Of a stretch of DNA of 64,000 nt, positions 29,308-45,861 are shown piece by piece; positions within the stretch are counted from its first letter, which is position 1, and every line of letters begins with the position of its first letter. This DNA comes from Acidithiobacillus sp. GTDB lineage: Bacteria > Pseudomonadota > Gammaproteobacteria > Acidithiobacillales > Acidithiobacillaceae. Below the pieces are notes generated by a model that was not told the origin of the DNA, searched no databases, and worked only from the letters and a program-made list of their open reading frames with translations. The stretch is taken from assembly GCF_027322205.1 (NCBI RefSeq), contig NZ_DAHVHY010000001.1, positions 11,060 to 75,059 on the forward strand, read 5' to 3'. The translations under genes and the position numbers were made by a program.

Positions 29308-30090
29308 ATGCTAGAAACGATAACACTATGTATTTTGGCAAGTATAATATCCAGCCAAATCGTGCTTACCATGCTAATCCTTTGCCCTCGCTGCAAATTG
29401 ATCAGCCCAAACTTAGTCCGCCTGCCCCAAGCCGCTATCGCACGTCGCGAAATTGCTCTCACCTTCGACGACGGGCCACATGCAGAAATAACCCCGCAAA
29501 TACTAGATCACCTAGATCTACATAACGCCAAAGCCACCTTTTTTTGCATTGGTGAGAAAGTTGCTGCGCACCCGAATTTAGTCGCCGAAATAATGCGTCG
29601 AGGCCATAGCGTAGAAAATCACAGTTATCGCCACAATACGCTTTTCGCCTTCAGCAGCCCAAGTTTATTAGCGAACGACATTGTTAAAACGCAAAAAGCC
29701 ATCGAAGCTGCGACACATGGAACAGCACCACGTTTCTTCCGCGCGCCTTTTGGCTTTCGCAGTCCATTCTTGGGCAGGGTATTACGGCGACTGGGCCTGC
29801 AACACGTCGCGTGGACTCGACGTGGTTACGACACGACATCTCGAAATCCAGACACCGTGCTCCGCCGCCTCAGCCGCAATCTGGCCGCCGGAGACATATT
29901 GTTATTGCATGACGGCAAACCAGGGCTAGTTGTGTTACCCAGACTACTAGAACTGTGTAGCCATAAAGAACTACGTAGCGTGTCTTTATCCATGATATTT
30001 AAGGATGTCGAAACGCCCCCACAAATATGCAACCGTACCATGACAAGTGCTGGCGGTGATCACACACCATCGACGAATGCGCCGAGCTAA
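29308..30090 (+). CDS. Polysaccharide deacetylase (CE4/NodB family), membrane anchored
   Basis: TFDDGP, NHSYRH, RAPFG, DILLLHD motifs; N-terminal hydrophobic helix. Confidence 0.9.
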   Translation: MLETITLCILASIISSQIVLTMLILCPRCKLISPNLVRLPQAAIARREIALTFDDGPHAEITPQILDHLDLHNAKATFFCIGEKVAAHPNLVAEIMRRGHSVENHSYRHNTLFAFSSPSLLANDIVKTQKAIEAATHGTAPRFFRAPFGFRSPFLGRVLRRLGLQHVAWTRRGYDTTSRNPDTVLRRLSRNLAAGDILLLHDGKPGLVVLPRLLELCSHKELRSVSLSMIFKDVETPPQICNRTMTSAGGDHTPSTNAPS

Positions 30091-30137
30091 CTAGTTCAGT
30101 GTAGCTTTTATAGAAAGCGCCACTGGAGGAACGACAG

Positions 30138-31460
30138 ATGACCAAAGAACAACAGACATCAAACGCACATCCTGTGACACACGAATGTGACGTTCTGGTT
30201 ATAGGTGGCGGACCGGCAGGCTCGACGATCGGTGCGCTACTCGCAAAGCGCGGCTACCAAATCACCATACTAGAAAAAGCACATCATCCAAGATTTCATA
30301 TAGGTGAATCCCTGCTCCCCGCCAATTTACCGCTGCTGCAGAAATTGGGTGTTGCCCAAGAGGTAGACCAGATTGGGATGAAAAAATGGGGTGCAGAATT
30401 CAACTCGCCCTACCATACAAAGAAAAGAGAAACCTTCTTATTTGCCGATGCATGGGACAAGTCCATGCCCATGGCCTATCAGGTCAGACGCGCAGACTTC
30501 GATGATATTCTGTTTCGCAATGCGCGCAAAAAAGGCGCGACGACGATTGAGGGATGCCGGGTCCAGTCGGTTGAATTTTTGCCGCACGGAAAAGGTGCCA
30601 TAGTTCATGCCCTCCGCGAAGATGGATCGACAGAAATATGGAAAGCACGGTTCCTGGTTGATGCATCCGGTAGAGATACATTTCTCGGAACACGCTTCAA
30701 GACCAAACAGAACAACCCAAAACATAACAGCTCTGCCCTTTATGCGCATTTCCGTGGGGCACATCGCCTCCCCGGCAGTGAAGAGGGACATATTTCGCTA
30801 TTCTGGTTTGAACATGGGTGGTTTTGGTTCATCCCGTTAGCCGACGGAACTACCAGCGTGGGAGCGGTGGTATGGCCCTCTTATCTCAAAACACGAAAGA
30901 AACCCGTGGAAGATTTCTTTGCGGATACCATTGCCATGTCTCCCGATCTAGCGATGCGATTAGCAGACGCGCAGCGCGTGACCGATGTCGAAGCTACTGG
31001 CAACTACGCCTATATCTGCGAGCAGACCCATGGGGAAAGTTTCCTCATGTTGGGGGATGCATTCGCATTTTACGATCCCGTCTTTTCGTCGGGCGTCATG
31101 CTCGCCATGCAAAGCGCCTTTATCGGTGCCGATACGATTGATACTTGCCTGCGACAACCGCGACGTGCCGCCGCCGCGCTGCGTCACTTTGACCGGAAAG
31201 TTCGGCACGGAGGCAAGGTATTCTCCTGGTACATTTATCGCATGTCACAGCCCACCCTGCGCGATATGTTTATGTTTCCGGGCAATCAGGCACGAACCAA
31301 AGAGGCCGTACTATCCGTTCTCGCAGGAGATATTTTCAATAAAACACCGATTTGGAATTCCCTACGGATCTTCAAAATGGTCTATTACCTGACGTCGCTG
31401 CGGCACCTCGGAGCGTCTTGGGCCGCATACAAAAAACGAAAGGAAAACATCAGGATTTAA
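30138..31460 (+). CDS. Flavin-dependent halogenase-family protein
   Basis: GGGPAG FAD motif, HHPRFHIGESLLP, KKWGA, WFWFIP, GDAFAFYDPVFSSGV. Confidence 0.85.
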   Translation: MTKEQQTSNAHPVTHECDVLVIGGGPAGSTIGALLAKRGYQITILEKAHHPRFHIGESLLPANLPLLQKLGVAQEVDQIGMKKWGAEFNSPYHTKKRETFLFADAWDKSMPMAYQVRRADFDDILFRNARKKGATTIEGCRVQSVEFLPHGKGAIVHALREDGSTEIWKARFLVDASGRDTFLGTRFKTKQNNPKHNSSALYAHFRGAHRLPGSEEGHISLFWFEHGWFWFIPLADGTTSVGAVVWPSYLKTRKKPVEDFFADTIAMSPDLAMRLADAQRVTDVEATGNYAYICEQTHGESFLMLGDAFAFYDPVFSSGVMLAMQSAFIGADTIDTCLRQPRRAAAALRHFDRKVRHGGKVFSWYIYRMSQPTLRDMFMFPGNQARTKEAVLSVLAGDIFNKTPIWNSLRIFKMVYYLTSLRHLGASWAAYKKRKENIRI

Positions 31461-31462
31461 CC

Positions 31463-32527
31463 ATGCGCTTAGATGACGTCATGACAACAGGCACTGGCAC
31501 GCCGCTTACGCTTACTTATGCTCCGGCAGCAGTGGCATTAAACAATGACGCGTTGCGCACAGAAAACATTCTCGGTATCGTGCTGTTCGATAGTCCACTC
31601 GGCGCGGGGATCGGTGCTGACCAAAATAGTGGCATTCTAAAAACCCCCCTGAGCATTTACGGATCTGATGTCTGTGAAATCTGGAGTACCACACAGAGCG
31701 TAATTCCTGGACACTATTTGGATATACGCTATCGGCGCAGCGCAACCCTAACTTTGGGCAGTATCACCCTGGCTATAACATCACCACCTGACGATGGCGA
31801 CAACTTCAGTCCCCCGCCCATTCAGTCATGCGCTCAAGAAGCCTATCAGCAAATATTCACTCTCCTCCAAGAGAGTGGACATCTTCACCTACTCCGCGTC
31901 TGGAATTTTTTACCCGATATCAACGGTGCCACGCACGGCTTGGAACACTATCGCCAGTTCAATATTGGGCGCGCAAGTTCGTTTATTACCCACAACCGAC
32001 TTAGCGAAGAAAGTAGCATTCCCGCCGCGAGTGCTGTAGGGACATCCTCCGCAAATTTAGTCGTACACTTTCTCGCCGGACAGCACAAATCTGTAGCTCT
32101 GGAAAATCCCCGACAGATTAGCGCCTATTGCTATCCCAAAAAATATGGGCCATGCAGCCCTACCTTCTCGCGCGGCGGATGGCTCAAGCTAGATCAGCAA
32201 CATGCCTTATTTATTTCCGGAACCGCCAGCATTGTTGGCCACGACACCTTGCACATCGGTGATGTCGCCGCACAAACCCAGGAAAGCATACGGAACATTT
32301 CTGCGGTTATCGATGAAGCGAATCGCGTCGCCGGGCATCATTTATATAACTTGAACATGTTGAGCTATCGCGTCTATTTTCGCAATACTGCAGACTTAAC
32401 CGTTATCCAAACAGAGCTGAATCGGCTTATCGAACCCCTTACGGAAACGCTCTATATTCAGGCCGATATCTGTAGATCTGAACTCCTCGTGGAGATTGAG
32501 GGCACTGGCGGAGTCGTACACTTATAA
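31463..32527 (+). CDS. Chorismatase, FkbO/Hyg5/XanB2 family
   Basis: RVWNFLPDIN, YRQFNIGR, PAASAVG, ENPRQISAY, FISGTASIVGH, DICRSELLVEIEG. Confidence 0.88.
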   Translation: MRLDDVMTTGTGTPLTLTYAPAAVALNNDALRTENILGIVLFDSPLGAGIGADQNSGILKTPLSIYGSDVCEIWSTTQSVIPGHYLDIRYRRSATLTLGSITLAITSPPDDGDNFSPPPIQSCAQEAYQQIFTLLQESGHLHLLRVWNFLPDINGATHGLEHYRQFNIGRASSFITHNRLSEESSIPAASAVGTSSANLVVHFLAGQHKSVALENPRQISAYCYPKKYGPCSPTFSRGGWLKLDQQHALFISGTASIVGHDTLHIGDVAAQTQESIRNISAVIDEANRVAGHHLYNLNMLSYRVYFRNTADLTVIQTELNRLIEPLTETLYIQADICRSELLVEIEGTGGVVHL

Positions 32528-32815
32528 AATTAAGAAATACCCCATATCTATTTGCATAATATCATGACAACATTCTCATATGTTCATAAACAGCCGGGTT
32601 AAAATTAGTAATAGTCCTTTTTCTGAAAACGACTGCTTGCAAAGCAAACTATTTATTCCGGTGATTTACTTTTTGACATGTTTCTGGTATACAAGCCTTT
32701 CGTGATTTTGATCCTGAAAAAAAGAGACTGAACTTAAATCGTACTGGCTAATTTAAACCATATTCGATAGATTTAGGTTCAGCACCATTCGACCCATCAC
32801 ACCGAGAAAATACCA

Positions 32816-33262
32816 ATGAAATCAAATAAAAACATCGCCAGACTATTATCTGTCACCTGCCTTGCCTCAGGACTGATCGGCTGCGCAACCCAAGAACATC
32901 AGCCTGTATCGACTACTGCGGCATCCCAGGTCAGTGCCGTAGTGGTAGCCCCTACGGCAAGTACTGCCTCGGCACTGGACAGAGCTGCCGAAAAAACCAA
33001 CGTCCTCCCCACCCCAGGATCGCCATTCTCCAAATTGAAGATAGGCATGTCCCGACGCCAGGTTGAGCAACTGATCGGCTTTCCGGATCACACATCGAGC
33101 CACATTACCGGCAAGCAATTTATTCCATTTTACTTCGGCGGAGACACTCGCCGTACAGAAGCGTCTTATAAGGGCCAGGGTATCCTTACTTATGACAACA
33201 ACTCTCGATTTGGATCAACGGATACTTTGCTTATAATAACGGTGGACACAAATACCCCGTAA
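32816..33262 (+). CDS. Lipoprotein, SmpA/BamE-like domain
   Basis: Lipobox LIGC after a basic N-terminus; KLKIGMSRRQVEQLIGFPD. Confidence 0.75.
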   Translation: MKSNKNIARLLSVTCLASGLIGCATQEHQPVSTTAASQVSAVVVAPTASTASALDRAAEKTNVLPTPGSPFSKLKIGMSRRQVEQLIGFPDHTSSHITGKQFIPFYFGGDTRRTEASYKGQGILTYDNNSRFGSTDTLLIITVDTNTP

Positions 33263-33516: not shown

Positions 33517-34296
33517 ATGGGCATTATTGATAAAATACGTTCTGCCCGAGAATACGTAGTATTCTACGTTGGTCTCGCGCTCTTGGCGAGCATTAGTCTT
33601 TTATGGTCTATTTTTGCGCTACCCATGAACATTATACTTCCCACAAAGTGGCGGAAGTTAACGGGGCGATGGGTTATTTCCATGGGGTTTAGGCTGTATC
33701 TACGGGCATTATCCGCTCTCGGTGCGTGCCATTTTGATATTAGCGCACTCGATACACTCAGCGATGAATCACCGATGGTCATCGCACCGAATCATCCCTC
33801 CCTGCTCGACGCGGTTATGATCCTTTCGCGCATGCCGCGCCTAGCATGCATCATGAAGGCGGAGTTGGTAGATAATCCATTTTTTGGCGCCGGCGCGCGC
33901 CTGGCCTGTTACATTCGTAATGACGCCATACGCCACATGCTTCACCTTGCCGTGGAGGAACTGCGCAGTGGCAGTCATTTGCTTCTTTTCCCGGAAGGCA
34001 CTCGCAGTCATCCTCTTCCCATCGGAACCATACGGGGCAGCATTGCGCTGATTGCCAAGCAGGCCCATGTCCCCATTCAGACCATATTAATCACCGCAGA
34101 CTCTCCCTTTCTCGGGAAGGGATGGCCCTTCTTTCGCAAGCCAGCCATGCCTATTCACTACCGTATAGAGATAGGCCGCCGCTTCGATCCGCCAACGGAC
34201 GTACGCCGCACCATAGCGGAACTGGAAGCCTATTTTCACTCGGCTCTGCCCGGCGAACCCTGTGCACCAGGCGTCGCGGCAGCAGACGAGTGTTAA
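33517..34296 (+). CDS. Lysophospholipid acyltransferase (PlsC-like)
   Basis: NHPSLLD (HxxxxD), FPEGTRS. Confidence 0.9.
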   Translation: MGIIDKIRSAREYVVFYVGLALLASISLLWSIFALPMNIILPTKWRKLTGRWVISMGFRLYLRALSALGACHFDISALDTLSDESPMVIAPNHPSLLDAVMILSRMPRLACIMKAELVDNPFFGAGARLACYIRNDAIRHMLHLAVEELRSGSHLLLFPEGTRSHPLPIGTIRGSIALIAKQAHVPIQTILITADSPFLGKGWPFFRKPAMPIHYRIEIGRRFDPPTDVRRTIAELEAYFHSALPGEPCAPGVAAADEC

Positions 34297-35060
34297 TGAA
34301 ACAATCCTCCAACACCCACTTAGTGCTTATTCCGAGCTACAACCCCGGGCCTAAAGTATATGAGACCGTGACTGCGGCACGTCAGCATTGGAGCCCTGTC
34401 TGGGTCGTCGTGGACGGGAGCACCGACGGCACGGCAATAGGCCTCCAGGAATTAGCGCGCCGGGATAGTGGATTGCGCATTCTTCTCCTCTCCCACAACC
34501 GTGGCAAAGGAGAAGCTGTACGATGTGGCTTGGAGCAAGCCCAGGCACAGGGCTATACCCATGTGTTGACGATGGACTCTGACGGTCAGCATCCCGCCGG
34601 GGCGGTTCCCGCATTTATGCAAGCATCTGCCGACAACCCTGACGCCATGATCCTCGGCGTACCGGTTTTTGATGCCAGTGCCCCCGCTCTTCGGGTAAAA
34701 GGTCGCAAGATATCGAACTGGTGGGCCAACCTGGAAACATTAGGCGGGGGTATCAGTGACTCCCTCTTTGGCTTTCGCGTTTATCCCCTCGTCCCCCTGC
34801 AGCGCCTCATGCACAAACAGCGCTGGATGCGGCGTTTCGATTTCGATCCAGAAGCCGCTGTACGAATGTCCTGGATGGGAATTCGCATTATCAACTTACC
34901 GGCGCCCGTGCGTTATTTTGAGACCAGCGATGGCGGGGTTTCTCATTTTCATTACCTGCGTGATAATGTTCTGTTGACCTGGATGCATACCCGTTTATTT
35001 CTTGGTTTTATAATACGCCTGCCGATGTTATTGGCGCGCCGGATACGGCAGCAGCATTAG
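34296..35060 (+). CDS. Glycosyltransferase family 2
   Basis: LIPSYN, VVDGSTDGT, NRGKGEA, MDSDGQH, DSLFGFRVYP; TAATG overlap with upstream gene. Confidence 0.92.
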   Translation: MKQSSNTHLVLIPSYNPGPKVYETVTAARQHWSPVWVVVDGSTDGTAIGLQELARRDSGLRILLLSHNRGKGEAVRCGLEQAQAQGYTHVLTMDSDGQHPAGAVPAFMQASADNPDAMILGVPVFDASAPALRVKGRKISNWWANLETLGGGISDSLFGFRVYPLVPLQRLMHKQRWMRRFDFDPEAAVRMSWMGIRIINLPAPVRYFETSDGGVSHFHYLRDNVLLTWMHTRLFLGFIIRLPMLLARRIRQQH

Positions 35061-35087: not shown

Positions 35088-36386
35088 TTAAGTAGCAACG
35101 GCCTCCCCATGTTGCCCATGCACATGGGGTAACCAGCGCCGCAGCAACGGCGTTGTGACGACGGTGCTCACAATAGCCATAATGACCAGCATAGTAAAAA
35201 CATTTTCTGAAATGGCCCCCATATCATAACCCACATTAATGACAATAAGCTCCATGAGTGCTCTGGTGTTCATCATGACCCCAATGATTTTCCCCTGATG
35301 ATGATTCAATCCTGAAATCCGTGCGGCGACATACACGCCAGCAAACTTAGAGATCGTCGCCAATATCAATATTAAACCACACCAAATCCACAAGCCCAGG
35401 CCATCGAGCGCGGCAATATTAGTTCGCAAGCCGGTATAAGTAAAAAATATTGGCAGAAAAAAAACCAAAACGAAAGGGGCAACACGCTCTTGCCATAGCC
35501 TGGAAAAAGCGACTTCGTCATACAATATGACGCCCATAATAAATCCACCAAATATCGTAAATATTCCTAACGCTGAGGTGATCATACCCGAGATTAATAT
35601 GCCCACTAAGACAATCCCCAGAAAAGTCGCAGATATCTCATGCTCGGCATGAAAGTGGCGGATCGCCCATTTCATGAGTGGCCGAACGAAATAAAACCAC
35701 GCCAGGACAAAAAGTAAAACGAAAAATACCTTGGCCAAAAATAAGGGAAATTGAAATTGCGCAAGCGCCAAGGCCGTTACCAGTGCGAGTAACAACCAGC
35801 CCACCACGTCATTTATCGCTGCAGCACTGATTGCGATCACCCCAAGCCGAGATTTTGTTATGCCCAGCTCCATCATAATGCGACCGAGAACAGGAACAGC
35901 CGTAATGGAAAAAGCGGTAGCCACAAAGAGCGCCGAAACCCAGCGGTTTGCCTCCGGAGAAAGCAGAGGGGCGCTCATGAAGCCCACGCCAAAACCCGTA
36001 GCAAATGGTAACAAGAGGCTAGCCATCGCTATCCATAACACTACACGGCGATTGGCTTTTTCCTTAAGATGCGAAAAATCAAATTCCAGGCCGACCTGAA
36101 ACATCAGCAAGATAAGGCCTAACTGGGAAAGGACATCTAACGGCCCTGACGGAATAGAATGGAAAACCCAATGAAAAGGAACGGGCATTATCCAGCCGAA
36201 TAATGAAGGACCCAGCAGAATTCCCGCAATAATTTCTCCAACAACAGTGGCCTGGGCTATTCTAGCAGCAAAGCTTCCCGCAAGGCGCGCGGCCAGAATA
36301 ATAATGCAAAGTTGTGCCAAGGTAAAAAATACCAGACGTTCGGATTGCTGGGTTGCCAAATCCGCAACATGCTTACCAATGGTCAT
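35088..36386 (-). CDS. Cation:proton antiporter (CPA2/Na_H_Exchanger)
   Basis: GEIIAGILLGPS, LMFQVGLEFD, SITAVPVLGRI, AINDVVGW, MNTRALMELIV; about 12 TM. Confidence 0.9.
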   Translation of the reverse strand: MTIGKHVADLATQQSERLVFFTLAQLCIIILAARLAGSFAARIAQATVVGEIIAGILLGPSLFGWIMPVPFHWVFHSIPSGPLDVLSQLGLILLMFQVGLEFDFSHLKEKANRRVVLWIAMASLLLPFATGFGVGFMSAPLLSPEANRWVSALFVATAFSITAVPVLGRIMMELGITKSRLGVIAISAAAINDVVGWLLLALVTALALAQFQFPLFLAKVFFVLLFVLAWFYFVRPLMKWAIRHFHAEHEISATFLGIVLVGILISGMITSALGIFTIFGGFIMGVILYDEVAFSRLWQERVAPFVLVFFLPIFFTYTGLRTNIAALDGLGLWIWCGLILILATISKFAGVYVAARISGLNHHQGKIIGVMMNTRALMELIVINVGYDMGAISENVFTMLVIMAIVSTVVTTPLLRRWLPHVHGQHGEAVAT

Positions 36387-36402
36387 AAAATTGTTTCTAT
36401 GT

Positions 36403-37125
36403 TCATACCATGGCACCATTGACCGATATAATCTGCCCACTGATGTAAGCCGCTTTTTCTGAGGCCAGGAAACCCACGAGATCAGCGACCTCGGCCGGTT
36501 GTCCCGCCCGCCCCATGGGCACCATCTGGGTGATTCGCGCAGCATCAAAAGCCTGCGCACTCATTTCCGTGGCGATAATACCGGGCGCTACGGCATTGAC
36601 GGTAATACCCCGGCTGGCCACTTCCAACGCTAGCGATTTAGTCGCCGCATGTAACGCACCTTTCGCTGCTGCGTAATTTACTTGTCCGCGGTTCCCCATA
36701 AGCGCTGCCACGGAGGTAATATTGATGATCCGTCCCCAGCGGGTGCGGATCATGGGCATCAAGACGGCCTGCGTAACATGGAAAAAGCCGTTCAACGAAA
36801 CATCTATGACCTCCTGCCACTGCTGCGGACTGAGCCCTGGAAAAGCCGCATCATCGTGGATTCCGGCATTATTGATCAACACCTGTATCGGCCCCGATGC
36901 AATCAATTCCTGTACGGACTGGGTGGTCGTCTCGCGGTCGGTAATATCGAAGGCTGACACCACTGCGCGACCGCCAGCGTCTCTGATGGACGCCGCCAAA
37001 GCGGTAGCTTTTATCAGGTTGCGATGGGTATGAATAATGACGTCAAAGCCATCTGCGGCCAGCCTTTGGCAGATAGCGGCACCAATGCTACCGCTCCCGC
37101 CCGTCACCAAGGCACGTTTACACAT
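36403..37125 (-). CDS. fabG: 3-oxoacyl-ACP reductase (cluster-specific FabG/XanH-like)
   Basis: TGGSGSIG, NNAGI, YAAAK, VAPGII. Confidence 0.92.
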   Translation of the reverse strand: MCKRALVTGGSGSIGAAICQRLAADGFDVIIHTHRNLIKATALAASIRDAGGRAVVSAFDITDRETTTQSVQELIASGPIQVLINNAGIHDDAAFPGLSPQQWQEVIDVSLNGFFHVTQAVLMPMIRTRWGRIINITSVAALMGNRGQVNYAAAKGALHAATKSLALEVASRGITVNAVAPGIIATEMSAQAFDAARITQMVPMGRAGQPAEVADLVGFLASEKAAYISGQIISVNGAMV

Positions 37126-37576
37126 CTGGGGCTTCCTGTTTAGCCGCCACGAAAATAATGATCCGACCCTTAACGAGTATATGTCGGTCAGCAGAGATAG
37201 CGAAGTTGTAAAGCAAACTACTGTGGGCAGCGAGTCTTGTTGCACTGACCGCCAAATCGCCCTCGATATCGTCGAGGCGCGTTATTTCCAGACATAATTC
37301 TCGGACACTCGCGAGGTAACCCGCACCGGTCCTTTGAGGTTTACCTCCCTCTTCTCCCCGTACTAATGCATCATGTACAGCCATGGCCTGTGCCGCATAC
37401 TCGACAGCGCAGATCGCACCCAACCGTCCAGCCACCCGCAATGGGTTGCTTGCGCTTCGATGGCTGCTCGCGACACAGAGAATCTGTTCGTCATCCCAAC
37501 GCTCTACGCAATCCAGCAAGAGCATATTGCCTTTATGTGGAAGGTGATCGGAGATCCACTGACGACCTATCGACAC
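37118..37576 (-). CDS. Hotdog-fold 3-hydroxyacyl-ACP dehydratase subunit (ApeP-like)
   Basis: LPHKGNMLLLD, EYAAQAMAVH, GYLASVR; GTG start. Confidence 0.85.
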   Translation of the reverse strand: MSIGRQWISDHLPHKGNMLLLDCVERWDDEQILCVASSHRSASNPLRVAGRLGAICAVEYAAQAMAVHDALVRGEEGGKPQRTGAGYLASVRELCLEITRLDDIEGDLAVSATRLAAHSSLLYNFAISADRHILVKGRIIIFVAAKQEAPDV

Positions 37577-38376
37577 GGCGCCACTTCCAGCACCAGATAT
37601 TGAGAAGGCAAATACACCAATACGATATTTCCGGTATCCTGCCGCGCGATGGATTGCAGCAGCGGCAAACAACCTGCGGCGGGGATAGCTCTGGAGAGAT
37701 CGTCAAGCAGCAGGTCGGACATCGCTTGCCCCGGCAACTCGGCAAAGGGCAGGTCGCCAGCAATCCGAATCTGCGCCAGAGATTTGCCAGGATGCGGCGT
37801 TACCGTCAATAACAATGCAACCGCAAAAATATCAGGTACCGGGCGAACGGCGGATAGCGGAAAAGGATAATCCTGGTCACTGGCCACCAGCAACACAGGA
37901 GTACGGAGCGACACCAGCAGCGATACGGCTTCTAACAGGCCAGCCGCAAAACTTCCATCATAGGCGCTCACCACCGACGATGGTGCCATCGCGCCCGTGG
38001 CAATACCCCAGTAACCAGAAATCGCGTTATGCACGGAATTGTGAAACTGGGTGGGTGATATCAGATGGTCGTCGGCGGCCAGCGCCGAACAAATAGCGTT
38101 GCAGATATCCCCATCGCCACCCGAAGAGGCAAACACCGATGCCGGCTCCGCAGGCAAGACACCCGCCATGGTACAGGCCGCATATCCCACCTGCAGTGCG
38201 GCCATAACCCCTCTGCTGGCCCGGCGTCGTTCTGCCGGGGGCAAGGATTCCGGCGGCGATAATATGGTCTTTCCGGGTAGATAAGCATGTTCACCCTTCA
38301 GTAGACATACGGCCTCTTGCCAGCTTTCCATGCCCGGCCCCAACACACCAATACCTTCCACATACACAGGATGCAT
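37567..38376 (-). CDS. Ketosynthase chain-length factor
   Basis: LPPAERRRAS, SPTQFHNSVHNAISGYW; lacks catalytic Cys; directly after KS. Confidence 0.88.
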   Translation of the reverse strand: MHPVYVEGIGVLGPGMESWQEAVCLLKGEHAYLPGKTILSPPESLPPAERRRASRGVMAALQVGYAACTMAGVLPAEPASVFASSGGDGDICNAICSALAADDHLISPTQFHNSVHNAISGYWGIATGAMAPSSVVSAYDGSFAAGLLEAVSLLVSLRTPVLLVASDQDYPFPLSAVRPVPDIFAVALLLTVTPHPGKSLAQIRIAGDLPFAELPGQAMSDLLLDDLSRAIPAAGCLPLLQSIARQDTGNIVLVYLPSQYLVLEVAPCR

Positions 38377-38393
38377 AGCAATACCCCGGTTCG

Positions 38394-39587
38394 TTAAATG
38401 GGACGGCCAAAAATCAGGCTGCAGTTACTGCCGCCAAAACCGAATGAATTACTTAACACCGTGGAGATCGCACCCCCCTGATTTTGGGAAATGTAATTAA
38501 TTTCCAGCGACTGATCCCGCGGTCCGGTATATGGACTCGACGGCATAAAGTCATTTTGAATGGCCAATACGCATATGGCGGCTTCCAGGGCACCGGCGGC
38601 ACCCAACGTATGGCCCGTAGCCCCCTTCGTAGAGCTACATGGTGTTGCTGTACCGAAGACATTCGCTATAGCAATTGCTTCTGCCGCATCATTCGCCACG
38701 GTGCCAGTACCGTGCAGATTAATATAATCAATATGCTCAGGACCCAATCCTGCAGAGACCAGTGCGCGCTCCATAGCCAGGCGCGCGCCCAAGCCCTGCG
38801 GATGTGGCGAGGACATATGATAGGCATCACTGGATTCGCCGACACCCAATAACCAGACGGCTTCGCGGCCCTGAGGACCGGCCATCCTCTCCACGAGCAT
38901 ATACGCAGCCGCCTCCCCAATAGAAATGCCCGCACGATCACCACTAAATGGTCGACAAGGTTCTTTAGCCAAAAGACCCAGAGACTCAAAACCATAGAGT
39001 GTCGTCGCGCATAAAGAATCCACACCGCCCACCACCGCCGCATCAATCAGACCATAATCCACCATCCGCTGGGCGGAGGCGAAGACCTTCGCACTGGAAG
39101 AACATGCCGACGAAACGGCCACAGCAGGGCCTTCAAGACCAAGCTTACGCCGGACAAACTCCGTAAGGGAATAAGGGCTATGCGTGCCCGCATATACGAA
39201 TTCTGCCGGTAGCTGGCCACTCACTGCGTCACGATGTCGAAACGCCCACTCGGTACGTAACATACCGGCAGTGCTCGTTCCCAAGAAAACACCTACGCGC
39301 CGCCGCCCCCAACGACTGACGGCCGCCTCAACCGCATCGGCAAAACCATCTTGAGAAAGTGCAAGTTGGGCCAGGCGGTTATTACGACAATTGAAGTCTC
39401 GCAGATCGGCGTCAATTTTTTCATCATCAACGCCAGCCACCTCACCAACCCAGGTATCGACGACCATATCGCGGAATGCACAAGGCGCAAGCCCACTCCG
39501 CCGCCCATGCAATGCGGCCAGGGTTTGCTCCAGACCACGGCCAATACAACTTGTAGCGGTCATGCCAGAAATCATCAAAATGGACAT
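38394..39587 (-). CDS. Beta-ketoacyl-ACP synthase (aryl polyene KS)
   Basis: Cys-His-His triad: SSACSSS, HGTGT, KGATGHTLGAAG; SNSFGFGGSN. Confidence 0.93.
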   Translation of the reverse strand: MSILMISGMTATSCIGRGLEQTLAALHGRRSGLAPCAFRDMVVDTWVGEVAGVDDEKIDADLRDFNCRNNRLAQLALSQDGFADAVEAAVSRWGRRRVGVFLGTSTAGMLRTEWAFRHRDAVSGQLPAEFVYAGTHSPYSLTEFVRRKLGLEGPAVAVSSACSSSAKVFASAQRMVDYGLIDAAVVGGVDSLCATTLYGFESLGLLAKEPCRPFSGDRAGISIGEAAAYMLVERMAGPQGREAVWLLGVGESSDAYHMSSPHPQGLGARLAMERALVSAGLGPEHIDYINLHGTGTVANDAAEAIAIANVFGTATPCSSTKGATGHTLGAAGALEAAICVLAIQNDFMPSSPYTGPRDQSLEINYISQNQGGAISTVLSNSFGFGGSNCSLIFGRPI

Positions 39588-39899: not shown

Positions 39900-40163
39900 A
39901 TGCCCCTTACCCCGGAAGAAGTAGACTTGAGCCGTTTAATTATAAAATCCTTGAACCTGCCAATGGACCCTTTGCAGGTAGATCCTGAGGCCCCACTTTA
40001 TGGCGGCCCACTGGGCCTGGATTCTATCGACCTCCTGGAGCTTTCCATGGTCATCACCAAGAAATACGGGGTAATGTTATCTAGCGAAGGAGCCAATAAA
40101 ACAGAGATATTCAGTTGCTTAAGAACCCTCTGTCATTACGTACAAAATCATCAGGCGGACTAA
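39900..40163 (+). CDS. Acyl carrier protein (XanC-like)
   Basis: GLDSIDLLEL phosphopantetheine site; GGAG RBS. Confidence 0.92.
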   Translation: MPLTPEEVDLSRLIIKSLNLPMDPLQVDPEAPLYGGPLGLDSIDLLELSMVITKKYGVMLSSEGANKTEIFSCLRTLCHYVQNHQAD

Positions 40164-40196: not shown

Positions 40197-42563
40197 TTAC
40201 AACGTCTGTTCTATTATTACTGTCCTTCGCTCAGCCAAGCTGGCAGAAAACAAAAGCGCCAATACCACGCCTGGTGCAACAGTGGCGCCGATCGCCTGAA
40301 GGACCGGGACGCCGGAGAACGCCAGAGGCGCAAAACCGATAAGCGTAGCCAGATTGGCAACAACCAGAGATACCAAAGTACGCGATGAGCCTTCGCCGTT
40401 CATCTGTCCACTACGATCAAAGAATAGTGCGTAGTTAGACCCCACCGCAACTATCAACATCAGTCCGATGAGGTTCAAAATATTCAACTCGATGCCCATC
40501 ACCACGAATCCGGCTGCCACCGAAAGTACCGCAGCAATTAATGGTAACATGATTCGAACAACGCGAATCACGGATCGAAAGACTACCAATAATAAAATAA
40601 TAATACCTAAAACACCGGTCAGAGAAAGCTTGAGGGCATTTCTGATATACCCGGAATAAAGCGTATTTGTGGCTCCGGAAATATCGACAAACATAACATC
40701 ATCAACATGGTGCTGCCTCATGACGGCCTGCACGGCCTCAGGGTTGATCTTACCGGATGATGGCGCCATAACCGGTAACAATACACTCCACTCCTGGCCC
40801 TGATGGACAAGCATACTGTCTACAATTTGCCGGATACCTGTTGGCAGCTCAGCATAAGTCAGTGGCGGCAGCCTCCGCTCCCGCTCTACCGCTTGGACAA
40901 ACGGGGAGAGCCGTGATGCTGACACTGGCAATCCGCGCAGCGCTTCTGCCAAACGCGCGGTCAGAATTTTTTTCGGAGGCAAGGCAGATATACGCTCCAC
41001 TTGCGATTCCACACCGGGCAAAAAACGAGTAGGGGTTTGAAAACCTCCGATAATGCCAGAGACTTGGAGTTGTTCTAACAGCGGGTCTATTTTACTGGCT
41101 TTTTCCAGCGCCCGATTACGGGTTGGTCCGGAAACCACTAGCAGATATCCTGCATCAGGTATTCCCATATCCTTACGCAACTTCGCATAGAGTAACTGAT
41201 CGGCTTTAGGAACCGGACTAAGTGCCGACAGCTCGTGACTCCAGATATGATCACGATGGACAACCAAAATGCCACTCGCAATAACTGTCAATGAAATAAC
41301 AACCCATCTTGCGGACGACAGCATACGCATAATGTCGACAAGAATACCACCCATCCGCTCGAAATCGCGCCGTTTAAAATGATGCAAGGGCAAGCTCGGC
41401 AATACAAAACGGGTAACACCCGCGGCGGTGAGTAGGCCGGCAATAGCATAGAGGCCGAGCTGTGCGAGCCCTGGCAGGTTAGAAAACAGCAGACTGGCAA
41501 AACCGGCCACTGAAGTGAACACGCCCAGCCTGATGATGGGCCAATATTTTTTGCTCCATAATTCCGCGCCGGCAGCCATTTCCCCGGCCTGCACGAAGAA
41601 ATAGATTGAATAATCTACCGCCTCCCCGATCAGCGCTGTGCCGAATCCCAAAGTGATATCATAAACCACCCCAAAACCTAAAGACACCGCAGCGATACCA
41701 ACGATAACACCAGACATCACGGGTACAAGGCTGAATGCCAGCACCGCCAGCGACCGGTAGACGAACAACAGCAACATAATAATTAATGTGCCACTTATCA
41801 GCGACATCAACTCTGCGGCATGGATGATCGTATCGCGCGCCGCCACAGAAATCACACCCACACCAGTCAACTGTAACCTGGTGTTTTGGCCAGAGCTCCC
41901 CATGTCCCTTTGCGCCAACCTGAATATCTTTTTTATAGTAGCTATCGCCTGTTGTTGTGCGTCACTATCCGATCCCGGAAATCGCGTCTGCAACACAAGC
42001 AATGCGCTATCTCCGGTCGACGATACCCACACACCATCCAGGACTCGCGGCTTCGCCATTCCACGCATCCCCTTGGCCATGCCAATCATGGCTCCAGTAG
42101 GGTCACTCGGGAAAAGCGCTAGCATTGCCTCACCGCCTGGAGTAGCCAGGTCATTGAGTGTCTTTTCTATCGCATCATGCAGACCTTTTACCGAAAATAG
42201 CTCCGGCTTGGTAGCTGCACTCAACAAATAGCGATGCGCGAACAGATAATTATATATTTTTGAATTAACGCCCGCATTCCCATTACTCACAAATTTAAAT
42301 TGGCTATTTTTACGGAGATCGAGAGCCATTCGCGCGGAAATACGCGCCCTTGCAGCGGCATCGCCGCCATTTATCGCCACTAAAATCTTGCGTGAGAGCA
42401 CACCATTACGCAACTGTTCGTTCAACAGCTCTTGCTGTGCGCTAGGTGATTTTGGCAAAAATTCGGATAGCGTCGACTCAAATTTTGTATTGATGATTAC
42501 GCCAATGGCGCCGATCAGTATCGCCAGCCACACTCCCAGAATCAACCACCGGAATTTTCTCAT
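40197..42563 (-). CDS. MMPL/RND-family lipid exporter (XanM-like)
   Basis: Two TM blocks with GEAVDYSIY and GSNYALFF, two large periplasmic loops. Confidence 0.88.
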   Translation of the reverse strand: MRKFRWLILGVWLAILIGAIGVIINTKFESTLSEFLPKSPSAQQELLNEQLRNGVLSRKILVAINGGDAAARARISARMALDLRKNSQFKFVSNGNAGVNSKIYNYLFAHRYLLSAATKPELFSVKGLHDAIEKTLNDLATPGGEAMLALFPSDPTGAMIGMAKGMRGMAKPRVLDGVWVSSTGDSALLVLQTRFPGSDSDAQQQAIATIKKIFRLAQRDMGSSGQNTRLQLTGVGVISVAARDTIIHAAELMSLISGTLIIMLLLFVYRSLAVLAFSLVPVMSGVIVGIAAVSLGFGVVYDITLGFGTALIGEAVDYSIYFFVQAGEMAAGAELWSKKYWPIIRLGVFTSVAGFASLLFSNLPGLAQLGLYAIAGLLTAAGVTRFVLPSLPLHHFKRRDFERMGGILVDIMRMLSSARWVVISLTVIASGILVVHRDHIWSHELSALSPVPKADQLLYAKLRKDMGIPDAGYLLVVSGPTRNRALEKASKIDPLLEQLQVSGIIGGFQTPTRFLPGVESQVERISALPPKKILTARLAEALRGLPVSASRLSPFVQAVERERRLPPLTYAELPTGIRQIVDSMLVHQGQEWSVLLPVMAPSSGKINPEAVQAVMRQHHVDDVMFVDISGATNTLYSGYIRNALKLSLTGVLGIIILLLVVFRSVIRVVRIMLPLIAAVLSVAAGFVVMGIELNILNLIGLMLIVAVGSNYALFFDRSGQMNGEGSSRTLVSLVVANLATLIGFAPLAFSGVPVLQAIGATVAPGVVLALLFSASLAERRTVIIEQTL

Positions 42564-43240
42564 GGAGTAGACGAATTTCTTATACTAATAAACGACCAAT
42601 CGTGATTTACTTTTACAATTTCAATACTGCGTACCATGTTCCCGATACCACTAACAGCGATATGCTTGATCTGCTTTGCAAACGCATTTTGCTTCGGCAC
42701 CAGAATTAACGTCCAGCTATTTTTGTTGCCTTTTAGGGAAAGCATAAAATGCGTCTCCAATAGCTCCGTATTTCCGGTCAACACCCCGCGAATACTATCG
42801 ACAAAAGCGAGCAGTTCCGGATGATCGTCCAATTGAATAGTATATTTATCCATGGTGAGAACATCGCCTTGCACCAGCATCACCTGATCTCTGGGTTTGA
42901 CGGTGTGCATTTCCAGCGTATCCGGTGCCACAAAGCGCATATTACCAGATGATTGTATTGGCTTATCCAAAAACCCAATATGTTTTGTCTCTACAAAAGA
43001 GGCATGGCTAGACTTCACCTGCGCCAACATATGCATTAACTCTGTTATGTTCCAGTCTGCCGCGGAGGCCGCTTGTGTTAGCATGGAGCCCCCGATGAAA
43101 AATGCGAGAACGGCACCAATGGCATATCGTCTGGGCAGATAGAATATTCGTCGAAGCAGTAGTGATCTGAGAAATAAAATGTTAATACCCGGCGCAGTGA
43201 CCGCGACCGGCGACTCCGGTTGAGCGCGCTCAATACTCAT
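42560..43240 (-). CDS. LolA-like periplasmic lipid carrier
   Basis: FVETKHIGFLDKPIQSSGNMRFVAPD, WTLILVPK; start uncertain but ATGA-coupled. Confidence 0.8.
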   Translation of the reverse strand: MSIERAQPESPVAVTAPGINILFLRSLLLRRIFYLPRRYAIGAVLAFFIGGSMLTQAASAADWNITELMHMLAQVKSSHASFVETKHIGFLDKPIQSSGNMRFVAPDTLEMHTVKPRDQVMLVQGDVLTMDKYTIQLDDHPELLAFVDSIRGVLTGNTELLETHFMLSLKGNKNSWTLILVPKQNAFAKQIKHIAVSGIGNMVRSIEIVKVNHDWSFISIRNSSTP

Positions 43241-44196
43241 TTTAAATGACCCTCTTTCACTTTAATATTATAATTATTTGCCCAAAAATCATAAAAGTTA
43301 AACCAATTATAAGGAGCCATATGGCAGTATTTTTCAACCTCATTGACATATTTTAACATCGCATCCTGAATAGCCTTGTCCCGATCCAGTTTCTCTACAG
43401 AAGAAAAATCGGCAATCTGCGTTATAAATATTTCATAGTGCCCTGGACCCGTATAAAGGCCGGCCATAAAATACAAAGGCCGATTGAGCAGCGCCGCAAT
43501 ACGAAAAGTGCCGCTCGGCCATGCGGCGGGCTCTCCGAGAAAAGGGATAACCCGCTTTTTCTCTGACCCGACAGACCGGTCACCGAGGAAACCAACCAAC
43601 GCACCCATTTCCAATTGCTCCTGAACACGCAGCATCGTGTCCCAGCGGCCTAACGGGATAATATTAGGCCGCTCTCCGGTTTTCATACTCGCCAGCGTGG
43701 CATTGAGTTTTTTTGCGTTATCCTCATACATAACCATCACCACTGGCACCCCAGGATACTTCAGGCCGACAGACCGCAATACCTCAAAGCTGCCCAGGTG
43801 CGCACCCACCAGCAGGGCACCACGCATATCGGCAATCGCCTGTTCCACGTCTTCGGACAAATGCGACTGGATAGTAAACGATGAATCATCATTACTGAGC
43901 AGATACACTCTATCGTGAATCGTCGTAGCAAACGTCAGGAAATGACGATAGATATCTCTGGCATCGGCGCGGCGCCCGAGAACGCGGGTAAGGTAGGCCC
44001 GGGAGGCAACCCGCGCAGCGGGCGCAAAAAGCATAAAATAGCCCGCAATCAAATACAACACCACACGACCAACAGTCCTTCCCATCTTTTTCGAAATCCA
44101 GATCATCAGGCGCAGCATAAATCGGCTTCCCCGCTCGGGGCTACTAAACCACTCGTTATCCGGCGATTGTTGAACCGTGCTGAACCGGTGAACCAT
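43237..44196 (-). CDS. LpxL-like lipid acyltransferase
   Basis: W..PERGS, GAHLGSFE, LGDR, PYNWFNFYDFW. Confidence 0.88.
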   Translation of the reverse strand: MVHRFSTVQQSPDNEWFSSPERGSRFMLRLMIWISKKMGRTVGRVVLYLIAGYFMLFAPAARVASRAYLTRVLGRRADARDIYRHFLTFATTIHDRVYLLSNDDSSFTIQSHLSEDVEQAIADMRGALLVGAHLGSFEVLRSVGLKYPGVPVVMVMYEDNAKKLNATLASMKTGERPNIIPLGRWDTMLRVQEQLEMGALVGFLGDRSVGSEKKRVIPFLGEPAAWPSGTFRIAALLNRPLYFMAGLYTGPGHYEIFITQIADFSSVEKLDRDKAIQDAMLKYVNEVEKYCHMAPYNWFNFYDFWANNYNIKVKEGHLK

Positions 44197-44198: not shown

Positions 44199-44528
44199 TT
44201 AGAGTCGCTCCAAAACATGCCCAGAGAAGTCGCCGGATGCGACCAGACGAGCGCCCGCATGGACTTCAAAGGTCATGGGCAGAGCATCTGCTACGAGCAC
44301 GCGAAGATTCAGCAATTCACCAGGTGCCGCCGTGCTGTAGAATTTCGCCGAGCTAATACTGCAATCATTTATCGGCAAATCTCCCGTTGCGGCTATAGCG
44401 CAAACAATCTCATCCAGAAGCAAGGCGGCGGGCACAATCGGATTTCCCGGAAAATGGCCAGCGAATACTGGGTGCCCAACCGGAATGGTAAACCTATGGT
44501 CATAATATTTCAGACGAACGCTCCTCAT
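44199..44528 (-). CDS. Hotdog-fold dehydratase subunit (ApeI-like)
   Basis: HPVFAGHFPGNPIVPAALLLDEI. Confidence 0.88.
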   Translation of the reverse strand: MRSVRLKYYDHRFTIPVGHPVFAGHFPGNPIVPAALLLDEIVCAIAATGDLPINDCSISSAKFYSTAAPGELLNLRVLVADALPMTFEVHAGARLVASGDFSGHVLERL

Positions 44529-45861
44529 TACCCATCAAAGCTTCGACCATTGCTTTTAAGGCTTCTCGTGAGATCTTACCGGTAGTGTTCCTAGGCAGGC
44601 TATCCACGATCTTTAGCGGGCGAGGAATAAACGCTGGATCCACACACTGCTTGAGCCGCTCAATTATTATTTCTACATCCATGTCCGGGGCCACCGCAAA
44701 TGCCACTAAACGTGTCACTCGCCCATCAGCACTTTCATCGGGCATAAAAAACACCCCATCCAGAACTCCGGAGACAGCTGTGAGCTGATGATTTAAATGT
44801 GAAATAGAACTACGTTTCCCTGCTATATTTACGAGATCCTCCATCCGCCCATATAACAGAAAATGTTGTTCATCCACTATTTCTACGGCGTCGCCAACCG
44901 CCATCGCCTGCTGCAAATGCCCGCCCTGTATCCTAATCCGATCACCCTTCGTCATCCACGACAACCCCGGGAGTAAATGCCATTCCTTCGTTTGGCTCGT
45001 GCGCCGCGTTGCCACTACGCCAGTTTCCGTAGAGCCATAAATTTCGAGCAGCTCGCCGCCAAAGCGGGCTTCTGCGCTTACCGCGAGATCCCGAGTTAGT
45101 GGTGCCGTGGCCGAAAGCAACAAATCCACACTTGGCAATGGCGTATCAGTAGCGAGCATAGAACGAAGGTGAACAGGAGTACTGATCAAAACGCGCGGTC
45201 GCGCTACTGAGGAAATCCCTGCATAGATATCCGCTGGGTAGAAATAGCGCTCCGTGGCGATTATACCAGCACATTGCCACAGCATAAGAATGGTAGATTC
45301 AAAGCCATACATATGCTGTGGTGGAACGGTACCTACCACCGTGTAGGTGCGGCCATCGAGCAAGCCCAGGCGCTGAGCCTCCGCCCGCACCGAATGCACG
45401 AGATCTCCCCATGTTTTAAGGTGAGGAACGGGTATTCCGGTCGACCCCGATGTAAACACGTAAGCCACCGGGAGCGATTCATCCAGGCGCGGAATAGTGG
45501 GTGAGCTATCGACAGGCGCATCTGGCAGAACAATCGGAAACGCCAGGTATGGGAAGCCCATATCATTCCCATCATCGCCAATGCAAAACAGGTCTGGCGC
45601 GAAATCGACTATTTTTTTAACACTTTCGGTGGTGTACGTGGAAGGCAGCAGGCTGGTTTTCCCGGCAACCATTGCCGCCGCGAGGCCTACCATGAAATGG
45701 TACCGATCCTGACAGGTATTCAGCAAATGCTGTCCAGGCCGGAGTAACTGTCGGATATGGTTCACATCAGCCAGGAATTGTCGCAGAGTGACACCTCGGC
45801 CTTGGCGAATGGCCACGGCATCATCCAGTGATTGATGCGTCATCATCGGGAGATAATTCAT
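44500..45861 (-). CDS. Aryl-AMP/acyl-ACP ligase (XanA2-like)
   Basis: FTSGSTGIPVPH, TVPPQHMYGFE, YGSTETG, GRMEDLVNIAGKR, LPRNTTGK. Confidence 0.88.
   Translation of the reverse strand: MNYLPMMTHQSLDDAVAIRQGRGVTLRQFLADVNHIRQLLRPGQHLLNTCQDRYHFMVGLAAAMVAGKTSLLPSTYTTESVKKIVDFAPDLFCIGDDGNDMGFPYLAFPIVLPDAPVDSSPTIPRLDESLPVAYVFTSGSTGIPVPHLKTWGDLVHSVRAEAQRLGLLDGRTYTVVGTVPPQHMYGFESTILMLWQCAGIIATERYFYPADIYAGISSVARPRVLISTPVHLRSMLATDTPLPSVDLLLSATAPLTRDLAVSAEARFGGELLEIYGSTETGVVATRRTSQTKEWHLLPGLSWMTKGDRIRIQGGHLQQAMAVGDAVEIVDEQHFLLYGRMEDLVNIAGKRSSISHLNHQLTAVSGVLDGVFFMPDESADGRVTRLVAFAVAPDMDVEIIIERLKQCVDPAFIPRPLKIVDSLPRNTTGKISREALKAMVEALMGNEERSSEIL

Follow-up and report, generated by a model that had tools for sequence, protein, structure and literature searches.

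The arcuflavin (arc) cluster of Azoarcus sp. BH72 encodes ArcA (azo3921), whose counterpart in Dechloromonas aromatica is Daro_4197, annotated as a "halogenase/reductase" (Schoner et al. 2014, PMC3949708). In Azoarcus BH72, the arcA-type gene adjoins a chorismatase gene, ArcT is active with 3-HBA, and the pigment arcuflavin (C41H52O4) is a non-brominated, halogen-free aryl-heptaene without an extra oxygen or hydroxyl that would betray the action of ArcA (PMC3949708); the growth medium was LB with 0.5% NaCl. The xanthomonadin cluster of Xanthomonas campestris, an aryl-polyene cluster with brominated products, also contains a flavin-dependent halogenase homologue, XCC4001, with an identity of 26% to Azoarcus ArcA (61% coverage, E-value = 5e-17) and 24% to Daro_4197 (~60% coverage, E-value = 2e-15) (Schoner et al. 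2014, Table S4, PMC3949708). Among solved structures, CndH (3e1t), PltA (5dbj), Mpy16 (5buk), and ChlB4 (7fco) are "variant B" flavin-dependent halogenases belonging to pyrrole, tyrosine, or methylsalicylate pathways in other phyla. ChlB4, PltA, and Mpy16 use carrier-tethered aromatic acyl groups. FasV (8zop, FAD complex) acts in fasamycin biosynthesis and is not known to require a carrier. As early as 2013–2014, ArcA-clade genes of the Azoarcus, Dechloromonas, and Variovorax clusters carried the annotation "halogenase". The literature search returned nothing on 8ZOP, nothing on flexirubin halogenases or Variovorax aryl polyenes, and nothing joining Acidithiobacillus with a halogenase, xanthomonadin, or aryl polyene.

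The window (the whole analyzed stretch of DNA, 64,000 nucleotides) comes from an uncultured Acidithiobacillus from mine waters and contains a conserved aryl-polyene cluster of the yellow-pigment type (29308–46670) that matches the arc clusters of Azoarcus. The plus-strand operon opens with a gene for an ArcN-like polysaccharide deacetylase (29308..30090; Pfam PF01522, 2e-31), followed by the halogenase-type gene (30138..31460) and by genes for an ArcB-like chorismatase of the FkbO/Hyg5/XanB2 type (31463..32527; Pfam PF21168, 1e-30; TIGR04444 at 201 bits, under the cut-off of 325), a small lipoprotein, weakly BamE-like (32816..33262; ORF and Pfam), an ArcD-like PlsC-type acyltransferase (33517..34296; Pfam PF01553), and an ArcE-like family-2 glycosyltransferase (GT2; 34296..35060; Pfam PF00535), the start of which is taken to be an internal ATG overlapping the preceding stop codon. 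Encoded on the minus strand are an ArcG-like Na+/H+ exchanger-family transporter (35088..36560, start approximate; Pfam PF00999, 5e-54), a 3-ketoacyl-ACP reductase (KR; 36403..37245, start probably inside the ORF; Pfam adh_short, 8e-56), a candidate ArcI-like dehydratase (37118..37672), a chain-length-factor-like ketosynthase partner (CLF; 37567..38376; Pfam PF13723, 5e-26), and an aryl-polyene-type beta-ketoacyl-ACP synthase (KS; 38394..39587; NCBIfam PRK09185, 533.8 bits against a cut-off of 407). The ArcI-like candidate had no match in Pfam or NCBIfam and is suggested by its conserved position between KR and CLF (tblastn). An acyl carrier protein (ACP) with the phosphopantetheine site LGLDSIDLLEL is encoded on the plus strand (39900..40163; PRK09184, 87.6 bits against a cut-off of 70; Pfam PP-binding), whereas the remaining genes lie on the minus strand and encode an MMPL/RND-like exporter (40197..42563; Pfam PF03176), a LolA-like carrier protein (42560..43240; Pfam PF19574), a Lipid-A-type (LpxL-like) acyltransferase (43237..44196; Pfam PF03279), a FabA/FabZ-like dehydratase (44199..44528; Pfam PF07977, TIGR01750 weakly), an aryl-acid AMP ligase (ArcT/XanA2-like; 44500..45861; Pfam AMP-binding), and, in the ArcU position, a polytopic membrane protein (45909..46670) with no family match in the Pfam search. 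The ligase, presumed to load hydroxybenzoate onto the ACP, gave NCBIfam matches of the 4-coumarate and 3-hydroxybenzoate ligase-like kind, all under cut-off. Among all ORFs from 28686 to 47140, neither a flavin reductase gene nor a methyltransferase gene was found. RNA-seq of related strains covered the whole region at ~90% identity, which is no proof of transcription, because the data consist of contigs, assembled to lengths of up to 110 kb and flat in depth, and DNA carry-over is possible.

The ArcA and Daro_4197 clusters share with this cluster the halogenase homologue, the XanB2-type chorismatase, a small envelope protein, PlsC, and GT2; the KR, DH, CLF-like, and KS genes on the opposite strand (with the Na+/H+ antiporter); and the exporter/LolA/acyltransferase/DH/AMP-ligase/ACP block. 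Compared with Azoarcus, however, two loci are fused into one cluster in Acidithiobacillus, the methyltransferase and the argC-like gene are absent from it, a polysaccharide deacetylase gene lies immediately upstream of the halogenase-type gene, the lipoprotein takes the slot of a MipA-like outer-membrane protein, and the window is without dialkylresorcinol genes. Synteny was assessed in the best 80 loci by similarity to the halogenase-type protein, none of which was from Xanthomonas or Acidithiobacillus. The gene order of the cluster recurs among these beta- and gammaproteobacterial loci, with the chorismatase directly downstream of the halogenase homologue in 52 of the 80, PlsC in 66, GT2 in 69 (median identity 68%), and KS/CLF/KR/DH in 41–44; the ArcI-like candidate was matched between KR and CLF in 41 of the 80. 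Less frequent were homologues of the polysaccharide deacetylase (34/80), the Na+/H+ exchanger-family transporter (15/80, and also in the Azoarcus and Dechloromonas clusters), and the ArcU-position membrane protein (weak homologues, 14/80), and the lipoprotein was not conserved (1/80), this stretch being replaced in related strains. The halogenase-type gene thus stands next to the chorismatase gene within the PlsC–GT2/KR–DH–CLF–KS block, in the order given in Table 1 of PMC3949708 and in the best 80 loci. Its product is 57–63% identical to the syntenic homologues of Rhodocyclales (Dechloromonas, Azonexus, Zoogloea, and Oryzomicrobium) and, judging by synteny, belongs to the ArcA/Daro_4197 clade. 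Among cultured close relatives, A. ferriphilus has a protein 92% identical to it. It is an addition to the known ArcA-type clade of halogenase homologues, and the present annotation is sound but routine.

Orthology of the gene to XCC4001 was rejected, the latter being 24–26% identical to ArcA and Daro_4197, whereas the Acidithiobacillus protein is 57–58% identical to the Dechloromonas and Azonexus orthologues. As judged from the published BLAST comparisons with ArcA and Daro_4197, XCC4001 is a distant paralogue of the Acidithiobacillus gene. The preliminary description of this DNA had cited the brominated xanthomonadins as a precedent; because XCC4001 is so distant from the ArcA-type proteins, neither bromination nor this precedent is transferable by orthology.

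The open ORF 30138..31460 on the plus strand encodes a protein of 440 aa (ORF calling and translation) and is preceded by a GGAGGA ribosome-binding site (30125–30130), with the ATG 7 nt further on. The chorismatase ATG lies 3 nt past its stop codon (junction sequence); as judged from the sequence, the halogenase-type gene is translationally coupled to, and probably co-transcribed with, the XanB2-like chorismatase gene. Translation and alignment revealed the FAD-binding motif GxGxxG as GGGPAG (aa 23–28, 30204..30221), the halogenase signature WxWxIP as WFWFIP (aa 228–233, 30819..30836), and K83, the second K of GMKKWGAEF (30384..30386), all three lying where the preliminary description had placed them. 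A further intact motif, absent from that description, is the flavin/halide-site loop (DPxFSSG) GDAFAFYDPVFSSG (aa 306–319, 31053..31094), which alignments showed to be common to CndH, PltA, ChlB4, and Mpy16. In the HMMER alignments, K83 paired with the second K of PltA FPKKFGA (K73) and with the K of CndH FPIKRGG, i.e., it falls on the position of the catalytic Lys (PltA K73, CndH K76, PrnA K79), as the earlier reading had supposed. The WxWxIP motif was present without exception in the 120 closest homologues, and almost every 50%-identity representative, as far down as 34% identity, had it too; the K83 column was occupied by K in 120 of 121 homologue sequences. Residues G23, G25, P26, and G28 of GGGPAG and G306, D307, D313, P314, F316, S317, and G319 of the GDAFAFYDPVFSSG loop were invariant in alignment A2. 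The FAD site, WxWxIP, the catalytic-Lys position, the DPxFSSG loop, and the fold are intact, and strong purifying selection acts on them.

Family placement was evaluated by profile, sequence, and structure. Pfam PF04820 (Trp_halogenase) scored 91.7 bits against a cut-off of 21, and a phmmer search of the PDB returned ten solved halogenase-type chains (E-values of 6e-59 to 4e-42). The family profile matched CndH (1e-73), FasV (1e-72), ChlB4 (3e-69), Mpy16 (1e-68), and PltA (9e-65), halogenases overall falling between 1e-52 and 1e-73, whereas the first non-halogenases appeared at 2e-14 to 8e-11. For the AF2 model (pLDDT 83.5, pTM 0.85), the top 37 Foldseek matches in the PDB were halogenases plus the uncharacterised 3nix, with a TM of 0.80–0.83 to FasV, ChlB4, PltA, and Mpy16. 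Since the PF04820 score, the halogenase matches in the PDB, and the homologue-wide conservation of the motifs agree, the motif match is not due to chance. On sequence and model, the 440-aa protein is placed as a homologue within the flavin-dependent halogenase group of CndH, FasV, ChlB4, Mpy16, and PltA; profile values, fold, and motifs thus bear out the PltA/CndH-type assignment of the preliminary description. With the variant B enzymes it shares the fold (TM 0.73–0.83), GxGxxG, WxWxIP, the catalytic Lys, and the DPxFSSG loop, and the alignments extend as far as residue ~400–410, within the C-terminal helical region (query residues 401–410, the model being helical from 318 to 438), although the identity is only ~28–33%. 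A further likeness to carrier-dependent systems is the presence of ACP and loading-ligase genes in the neighbourhood. FasV ranked first both in the single-sequence search of the PDB (6e-59) and in Foldseek (1.4e-34, TMq 0.80), but it has 412 aa, and the alignment stops near residue 357, without the last ~80 residues of the 440-aa protein. The Cytophaga hutchinsonii "flavoprotein/dehydrogenase" 3nix, from structural genomics, is of similar length (profile E-value = 1e-61, TMt 0.87–0.89).

These scores bear on two other assignments. A double-bond reductase resembling geranylgeranyl reductases, with halogenase motifs present by coincidence, would be in line with the 109.5 bits given by the reductase family TIGR02032, but this score is under the cut-off of 158.8, the digeranylgeranylglycerophospholipid reductase 3oz2 was matched at 3e-11 against 1e-73 for CndH, the top structural matches were halogenases, and K83 pairs with the catalytic Lys, so that this assignment is effectively refuted; the grouping with such reductases, which the preliminary description had named as contrary to its reading, was not obtained (~3e-11 against 1e-52 to 1e-73 for halogenases). 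The CmlS equivalog (NF033113; 198 against a cut-off of 900) was likewise rejected, and a QhpG/LodB-type monooxygenase was dropped on the scores: the QhpG equivalog (NF049967) reached 176 against a cut-off of 240, and the solved monooxygenases QhpG and 8uiu were matched by the family profile at 1e-11 to 1e-14. In a wider form, the protein could be a non-halogenating flavoenzyme (a hydroxylase or other oxidoreductase) that has kept the fold and motifs of halogenases in aryl-polyene biosynthesis, for which the "halogenase/reductase" label of the Dechloromonas orthologue (PMC3949708), the sub-threshold NCBIfam matches to the monooxygenases QhpG and LodB, and the halogen-free arcuflavin may be cited. 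However, the Lys and WxWxIP, thought to be necessary for halogenation only, are almost invariant clade-wide and in neighbours down to 34% identity, the solved monooxygenases are matched far more weakly than the halogenases (1e-73), and arcuflavin carries no additional hydroxyl; such an enzyme is considered improbable.

The preferred reading, to which a probability of about 0.5 was assigned, is that of an ArcA-type flavin-dependent halogenase in an arcuflavin/xanthomonadin-like aryl-polyene lipid cluster, acting on a phenolic substrate. FADH2 would be supplied by a flavin reductase encoded outside the cluster; FADH2, O2, and halide would yield hypohalous acid, which K83 would direct to the phenolic substrate. 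The most likely substrate would be a 3- or 4-hydroxybenzoyl starter originating from the neighbouring chorismatase and tethered to the ACP, the alternative being the full aryl polyene, and the halogen would be introduced ortho to the hydroxyl group. The aryl-polyene setting proposed in the preliminary description was recovered, both the ACP and the aryl-AMP ligase being present, and these two appear compatible with a carrier-tethered substrate. Meanwhile, WxWxIP and the Lys, taken there as a sign of carrier-bound substrates, mark flavin-dependent halogenases generally, so an ACP-bound substrate can only be inferred. As for the claim that the aryl polyene is brominated or chlorinated, the halogenase homologue in the cluster speaks for it, whereas the arcuflavin of Azoarcus is halogen-free despite the arcA-type gene and the NaCl in the medium; a halogenated Acidithiobacillus pigment is plausible. 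Halogenase activity is likely, but it is unproven because the sole relative with an analyzed pigment makes a halogen-free one. Given that this relative's medium was rich in chloride, the enzyme may halogenate only with bromide, only under certain conditions, or to a minor extent. The lack of a flavin reductase gene in the cluster, the CmlS score short of its cut-off, and the distance of XCC4001 also speak against the preferred reading. The chloride sensitivity of the lineage, also invoked earlier, is evidence neither for nor against halogenation.

It should be noted that ArcA-type genes are fixed beside the chorismatase gene in dozens of genera, yet without a visible mark on arcuflavin. Across the best 80 loci, the median identity of the halogenase-type protein was 61.5%, the same as that of KS, and in every paired locus (100%) the chorismatase, AMP ligase, CLF, and dehydratases showed lower identity than it did. 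The loci, however, had been chosen by similarity to this very protein, which introduces an ascertainment bias into these figures. By these figures, the ArcA-type enzyme is as well conserved as the core synthase of the cluster. Such conservation, the fixed position of the gene in the cluster, and the lack of both halogen and extra oxygen in arcuflavin would suit a competent halogenase whose halogen is absent from the final pigment, halogenation being cryptic, or transient on an intermediate, or directed at another molecule that the cluster makes or handles, and the enzyme being core rather than decorative. This explanation is rated as rather unlikely: the proposed aryl-polyene pathway has no step requiring halogen activation, the bias in the choice of loci weakens the conservation argument, and the Azoarcus analysis did not specifically seek minor halogenated congeners. 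For the clade as a whole, we tentatively suggest, with the odds against it, that ArcA-type homologues are either core to the aryl-polyene lipid pathway, through cryptic halogenation or another essential step, or makers of overlooked bromide-dependent organohalogen membrane pigments, those of Acidithiobacillus in acid mine drainage among them.

If the ArcA-type protein is an active halogenase, as in the preferred reading, halogenated outer-membrane aryl-polyene lipids would be products of Acidithiobacillus as well as of numerous beta- and gammaproteobacteria of soil and fresh water, and would constitute a large unnoticed natural source of organohalogens. The clade would then represent a phenol halogenase family that may use ACP-tethered hydroxybenzoates and would merit attention in biocatalysis. 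Should the protein not halogenate a pigment, the strength of its conservation indicates an unrecognised step of aryl-polyene biosynthesis.

The halogenase homologue is encoded by an uninterrupted ORF of 440 residues (30138–31460, + strand; ORF call and translation) with the ribosome-binding site GGAGGA 7 nt 5' of its ATG. Its translation contained GGGPAG (residues 23–28, 30204–30221), WFWFIP (residues 228–233, 30819–30836) and K83 in GMKKWGAEF (codon 30384–30386), all located where the preliminary description had placed them, as well as an intact fourth motif typical of halogenase enzymes, GDAFAFYDPVFSSG (residues 306–319). Pfam assigned Trp_halogenase (91.7 bits, cut-off 21) and FAD_binding_3. 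A single-sequence search of solved structures matched ten halogenase-type chains (6e-59 to 3e-40), namely, FasV (8zop), CndH, PltA, ChlB4, Mpy16, RadH, CmlS, Bmp2 (two entries) and the uncharacterised flavoprotein 3nix. Sharper separation was obtained with a profile made from 48 homologues (CndH, 1e-73; FasV, 1e-72; ChlB4, 3e-69; Mpy16, 1e-68; PltA, 9e-65), the first non-halogenase being a Bacillus flavin monooxygenase (2e-14), followed by digeranylgeranylglycerophospholipid reductase (3e-11) and QhpG (8e-11). K83 was aligned with the second Lys of FPKKFGA in PltA (K73, counted on the PltA sequence shown) and with the Lys of FPIKRGG in CndH. The AlphaFold2 model (mean pLDDT 83.5, pTM 0.85) was superposed on FasV, ChlB4, PltA, Mpy16 and 3nix with TM scores of 0.80–0.83, and each of the top 37 Foldseek matches was a halogenase or 3nix. 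These profile scores and the Lys pairing bear out the proposed PltA/CndH-type flavin-dependent halogenase homologue; a geranylgeranyl-reductase-like enzyme, to which the weak reductase match would correspond, is effectively excluded by the same scores, alignments and Foldseek matches. The NCBIfam thresholds for the CmlS equivalog, the QhpG equivalog and the geranylgeranyl reductase family were not reached; hence, the protein is not an orthologue of any of these named enzymes.

The closest database protein, 92% identical, carries the species name Acidithiobacillus ferriphilus; identities were 72–83% for proteins of other members of the genus and 64–70% for those of Thiobacillus, Sulfuriferula, Polaromonas and Rhodoferax. 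The exact protein was found only on metagenome and Logan contigs, and the window DNA in mine-tailings and mine-drainage metagenomes; the window thus comes from an uncultured Acidithiobacillus. The catalytic-Lys column was K in 120 of 121 aligned sequences, WxWxIP was kept in all 120 homologues, and GxGxxG, WxWxIP and DPxFSxG were present in almost all 50%-identity cluster representatives, down to 34% identity, which places the protein deep within halogenase sequence space. The catalytic apparatus is intact and under strong purifying selection.

The aryl-polyene cluster lies between sspB (28272–28685) and the fructose-1,6-bisphosphatase gene (47140–48183). The plus-strand genes encode a polysaccharide deacetylase (29308–30090), the halogenase homologue, a chorismatase of the FkbO/Hyg5/XanB2 type (ATG at 31463, 3 nt past the halogenase stop), a small lipoprotein (32816–33262), a PlsC acyltransferase and a GT2 glycosyltransferase. 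They are followed on the minus strand by a Na+/H+ exchanger-family transporter (35088–36560), a ketoreductase (KR), a dehydratase candidate, a CLF-like protein, an aryl-polyene-type ketosynthase (PRK09185, 534 bits), an MMPL exporter, a LolA-like protein, an LpxL-like acyltransferase, a FabZ-like dehydratase, an aryl-AMP ligase and a membrane protein. The ACP gene (39900–40163, PRK09184) is the lone plus-strand gene inside this block, opposite to the flanking ketosynthase and MMPL genes. The flanks comprise a cell-division/cell-wall-like gene cluster, judged by ORF sizes, up to ftsZ (339–21944), then aroQ, accB, accC, prmA and sspB, and on the other side fbp, zapD, coaE, pilD, a pilS/pilR-like two-component pair, a pilB-type ATPase, aroE, anmK and hemH (47140–58897); with such housekeeping neighbours the pigment cluster is part of the chromosome and shows no obvious link to a mobile element. 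Between ftsZ and aroQ, a gene for a 288-aa ferritin-like di-iron protein (22435–23301, − strand; weak AurF, acyl-ACP desaturase and rubrerythrin matches) adjoins that of a HEAT-repeat protein (21961–22419).

Synteny was assessed in 80 loci (57–69% identity), the best of 594 relatives returned when each species was represented by a single genome; these loci were searched by tblastn with the window cluster proteins; since many contigs were short, the locus counts are lower bounds. The chorismatase lay directly 3' of the halogenase homologue in 52 of the 80 loci, and alongside it were found GT2 (69), PlsC (66), KR, dehydratase, CLF and ketosynthase (41–44) and the Na+/H+ antiporter (15). Gene content and order correspond to those of the arc genes of Azoarcus sp. 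BH72, which form two loci, and of the Dechloromonas aromatica cluster (PMC3949708). In both organisms the antiporter is likewise embedded mid-cluster, as it is here between GT2 and KR, and it seems to be a conserved, if unexplained, part of the cluster. The median identity of the halogenase homologue to the window protein across these loci (61.5%) equalled that of the ketosynthase (61.3%), was a little below KR (67%) and GT2 (68%) and exceeded by a wide margin the values for the chorismatase (43%), AMP ligase (49%), CLF (47%) and dehydratases (40–46%). Although this comparison favours the halogenase homologue, as loci were picked by similarity to it, the gene clearly does not behave as a tailoring gene that evolves fast and occurs patchily.

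Several positions vary. The polysaccharide deacetylase, directly 5' of the halogenase homologue here, lies 6–10 kb off beside the MMPL exporter in most other taxa; hence, rearrangement or fusion of the cluster has taken place in this Acidithiobacillus. The small lipoprotein was kept in one of the 80 loci, and its slot between chorismatase and acyltransferase holds a MipA-like outer-membrane protein in Azoarcus; the stretch 32431–33004 is swapped in assemblies of related strains (635-nt skip, 205 other letters). In RNA-seq-derived contigs of related strains, 385 nt of the intergenic region 5' of the plus-strand operon (28842–29228) are replaced by 249 other letters, and the promoter region is thus variable.

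Xanthomonadins are brominated and Xanthomonas clusters have a halogenase gene, whereas Lysobacter, whose cluster lacks one, makes non-brominated pigments (PMC3691225). This chemical precedent stands, but orthology does not: the xanthomonadin-cluster halogenase XCC4001 is only 26% identical to ArcA of Azoarcus (61% coverage, E 5e-17) and 24% to Daro_4197 of Dechloromonas (Table S4, Schoner et al. 2014, PMC3949708). Judging by synteny and 57–63% identity to Rhodocyclales homologues, the window enzyme probably belongs to the ArcA/Daro_4197 clade, so bromination is not transferable by orthology. In Azoarcus BH72, arcA adjoins the chorismatase gene, and arcuflavin from cells cultured in LB with 0.5% NaCl is a non-brominated aryl-heptaene esterified with a dialkylresorcinol (C41H52O4; PMC3949708). 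Hence, the one analysed product of an ArcA-type cluster was halogen-free in chloride-rich medium.

The halogenase homologue is coupled to a chorismatase predicted to make 3- and 4-hydroxybenzoate. Azoarcus has arcM and Dechloromonas a radical-SAM methyltransferase, whereas no methyltransferase gene was found in the window cluster (28686–47140), nor a flavin reductase gene within the cluster or dialkylresorcinol genes (darAB) within the window. With this gene set, the phenol of the predicted pigment would be free, and the dialkylresorcinol ester might be lacking. FADH2 from a reductase encoded outside the cluster would, with O2 and halide, yield hypohalous acid, which K83 would steer ortho to the phenol hydroxyl, left free and activated by the absent O-methyltransferase, of a hydroxybenzoyl starter or the grown aryl-polyene. 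At this stage the starter would probably be on the ACP, loaded by the AMP ligase. WxWxIP and the Lys mark flavin-dependent halogenases generally; they identify the family, as had been proposed, but not a carrier-bound substrate, which is suggested only by similarity to PltA, Mpy16, CndH and ChlB4, by alignment through the helical C-terminal region and by an ACP and a ligase encoded nearby. The proposal that an ACP-bound aryl polyene is brominated or chlorinated is weakened by this point, by the distance from XCC4001 and by halogen-free arcuflavin. Halogenation of the predicted pigment or its starter is the best explanation, with a probability of about one half. That a competent halogenase acts cryptically or on another molecule would accommodate arcuflavin together with the intact motifs, but is unlikely; a non-halogenating flavoenzyme with retained motifs, also compatible with arcuflavin, is less probable still given the conserved catalytic Lys. 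The supposed chloride sensitivity of the lineage, against which a halogenated pigment had seemed notable, has no bearing on the enzyme, which requires cytoplasmic halide alone.

Cluster comparisons of 2013–2014 already showed genes of this clade as 'halogenase', and in public databases they are annotated as NAD(P)/FAD-dependent oxidoreductase or tryptophan 7-halogenase; a literature search found no paper on such a halogenase-bearing aryl-polyene cluster in Acidithiobacillus. The interest of the finding lies in the mismatch between the core-like conservation of the halogenase homologue and the halogen-free product of Azoarcus.
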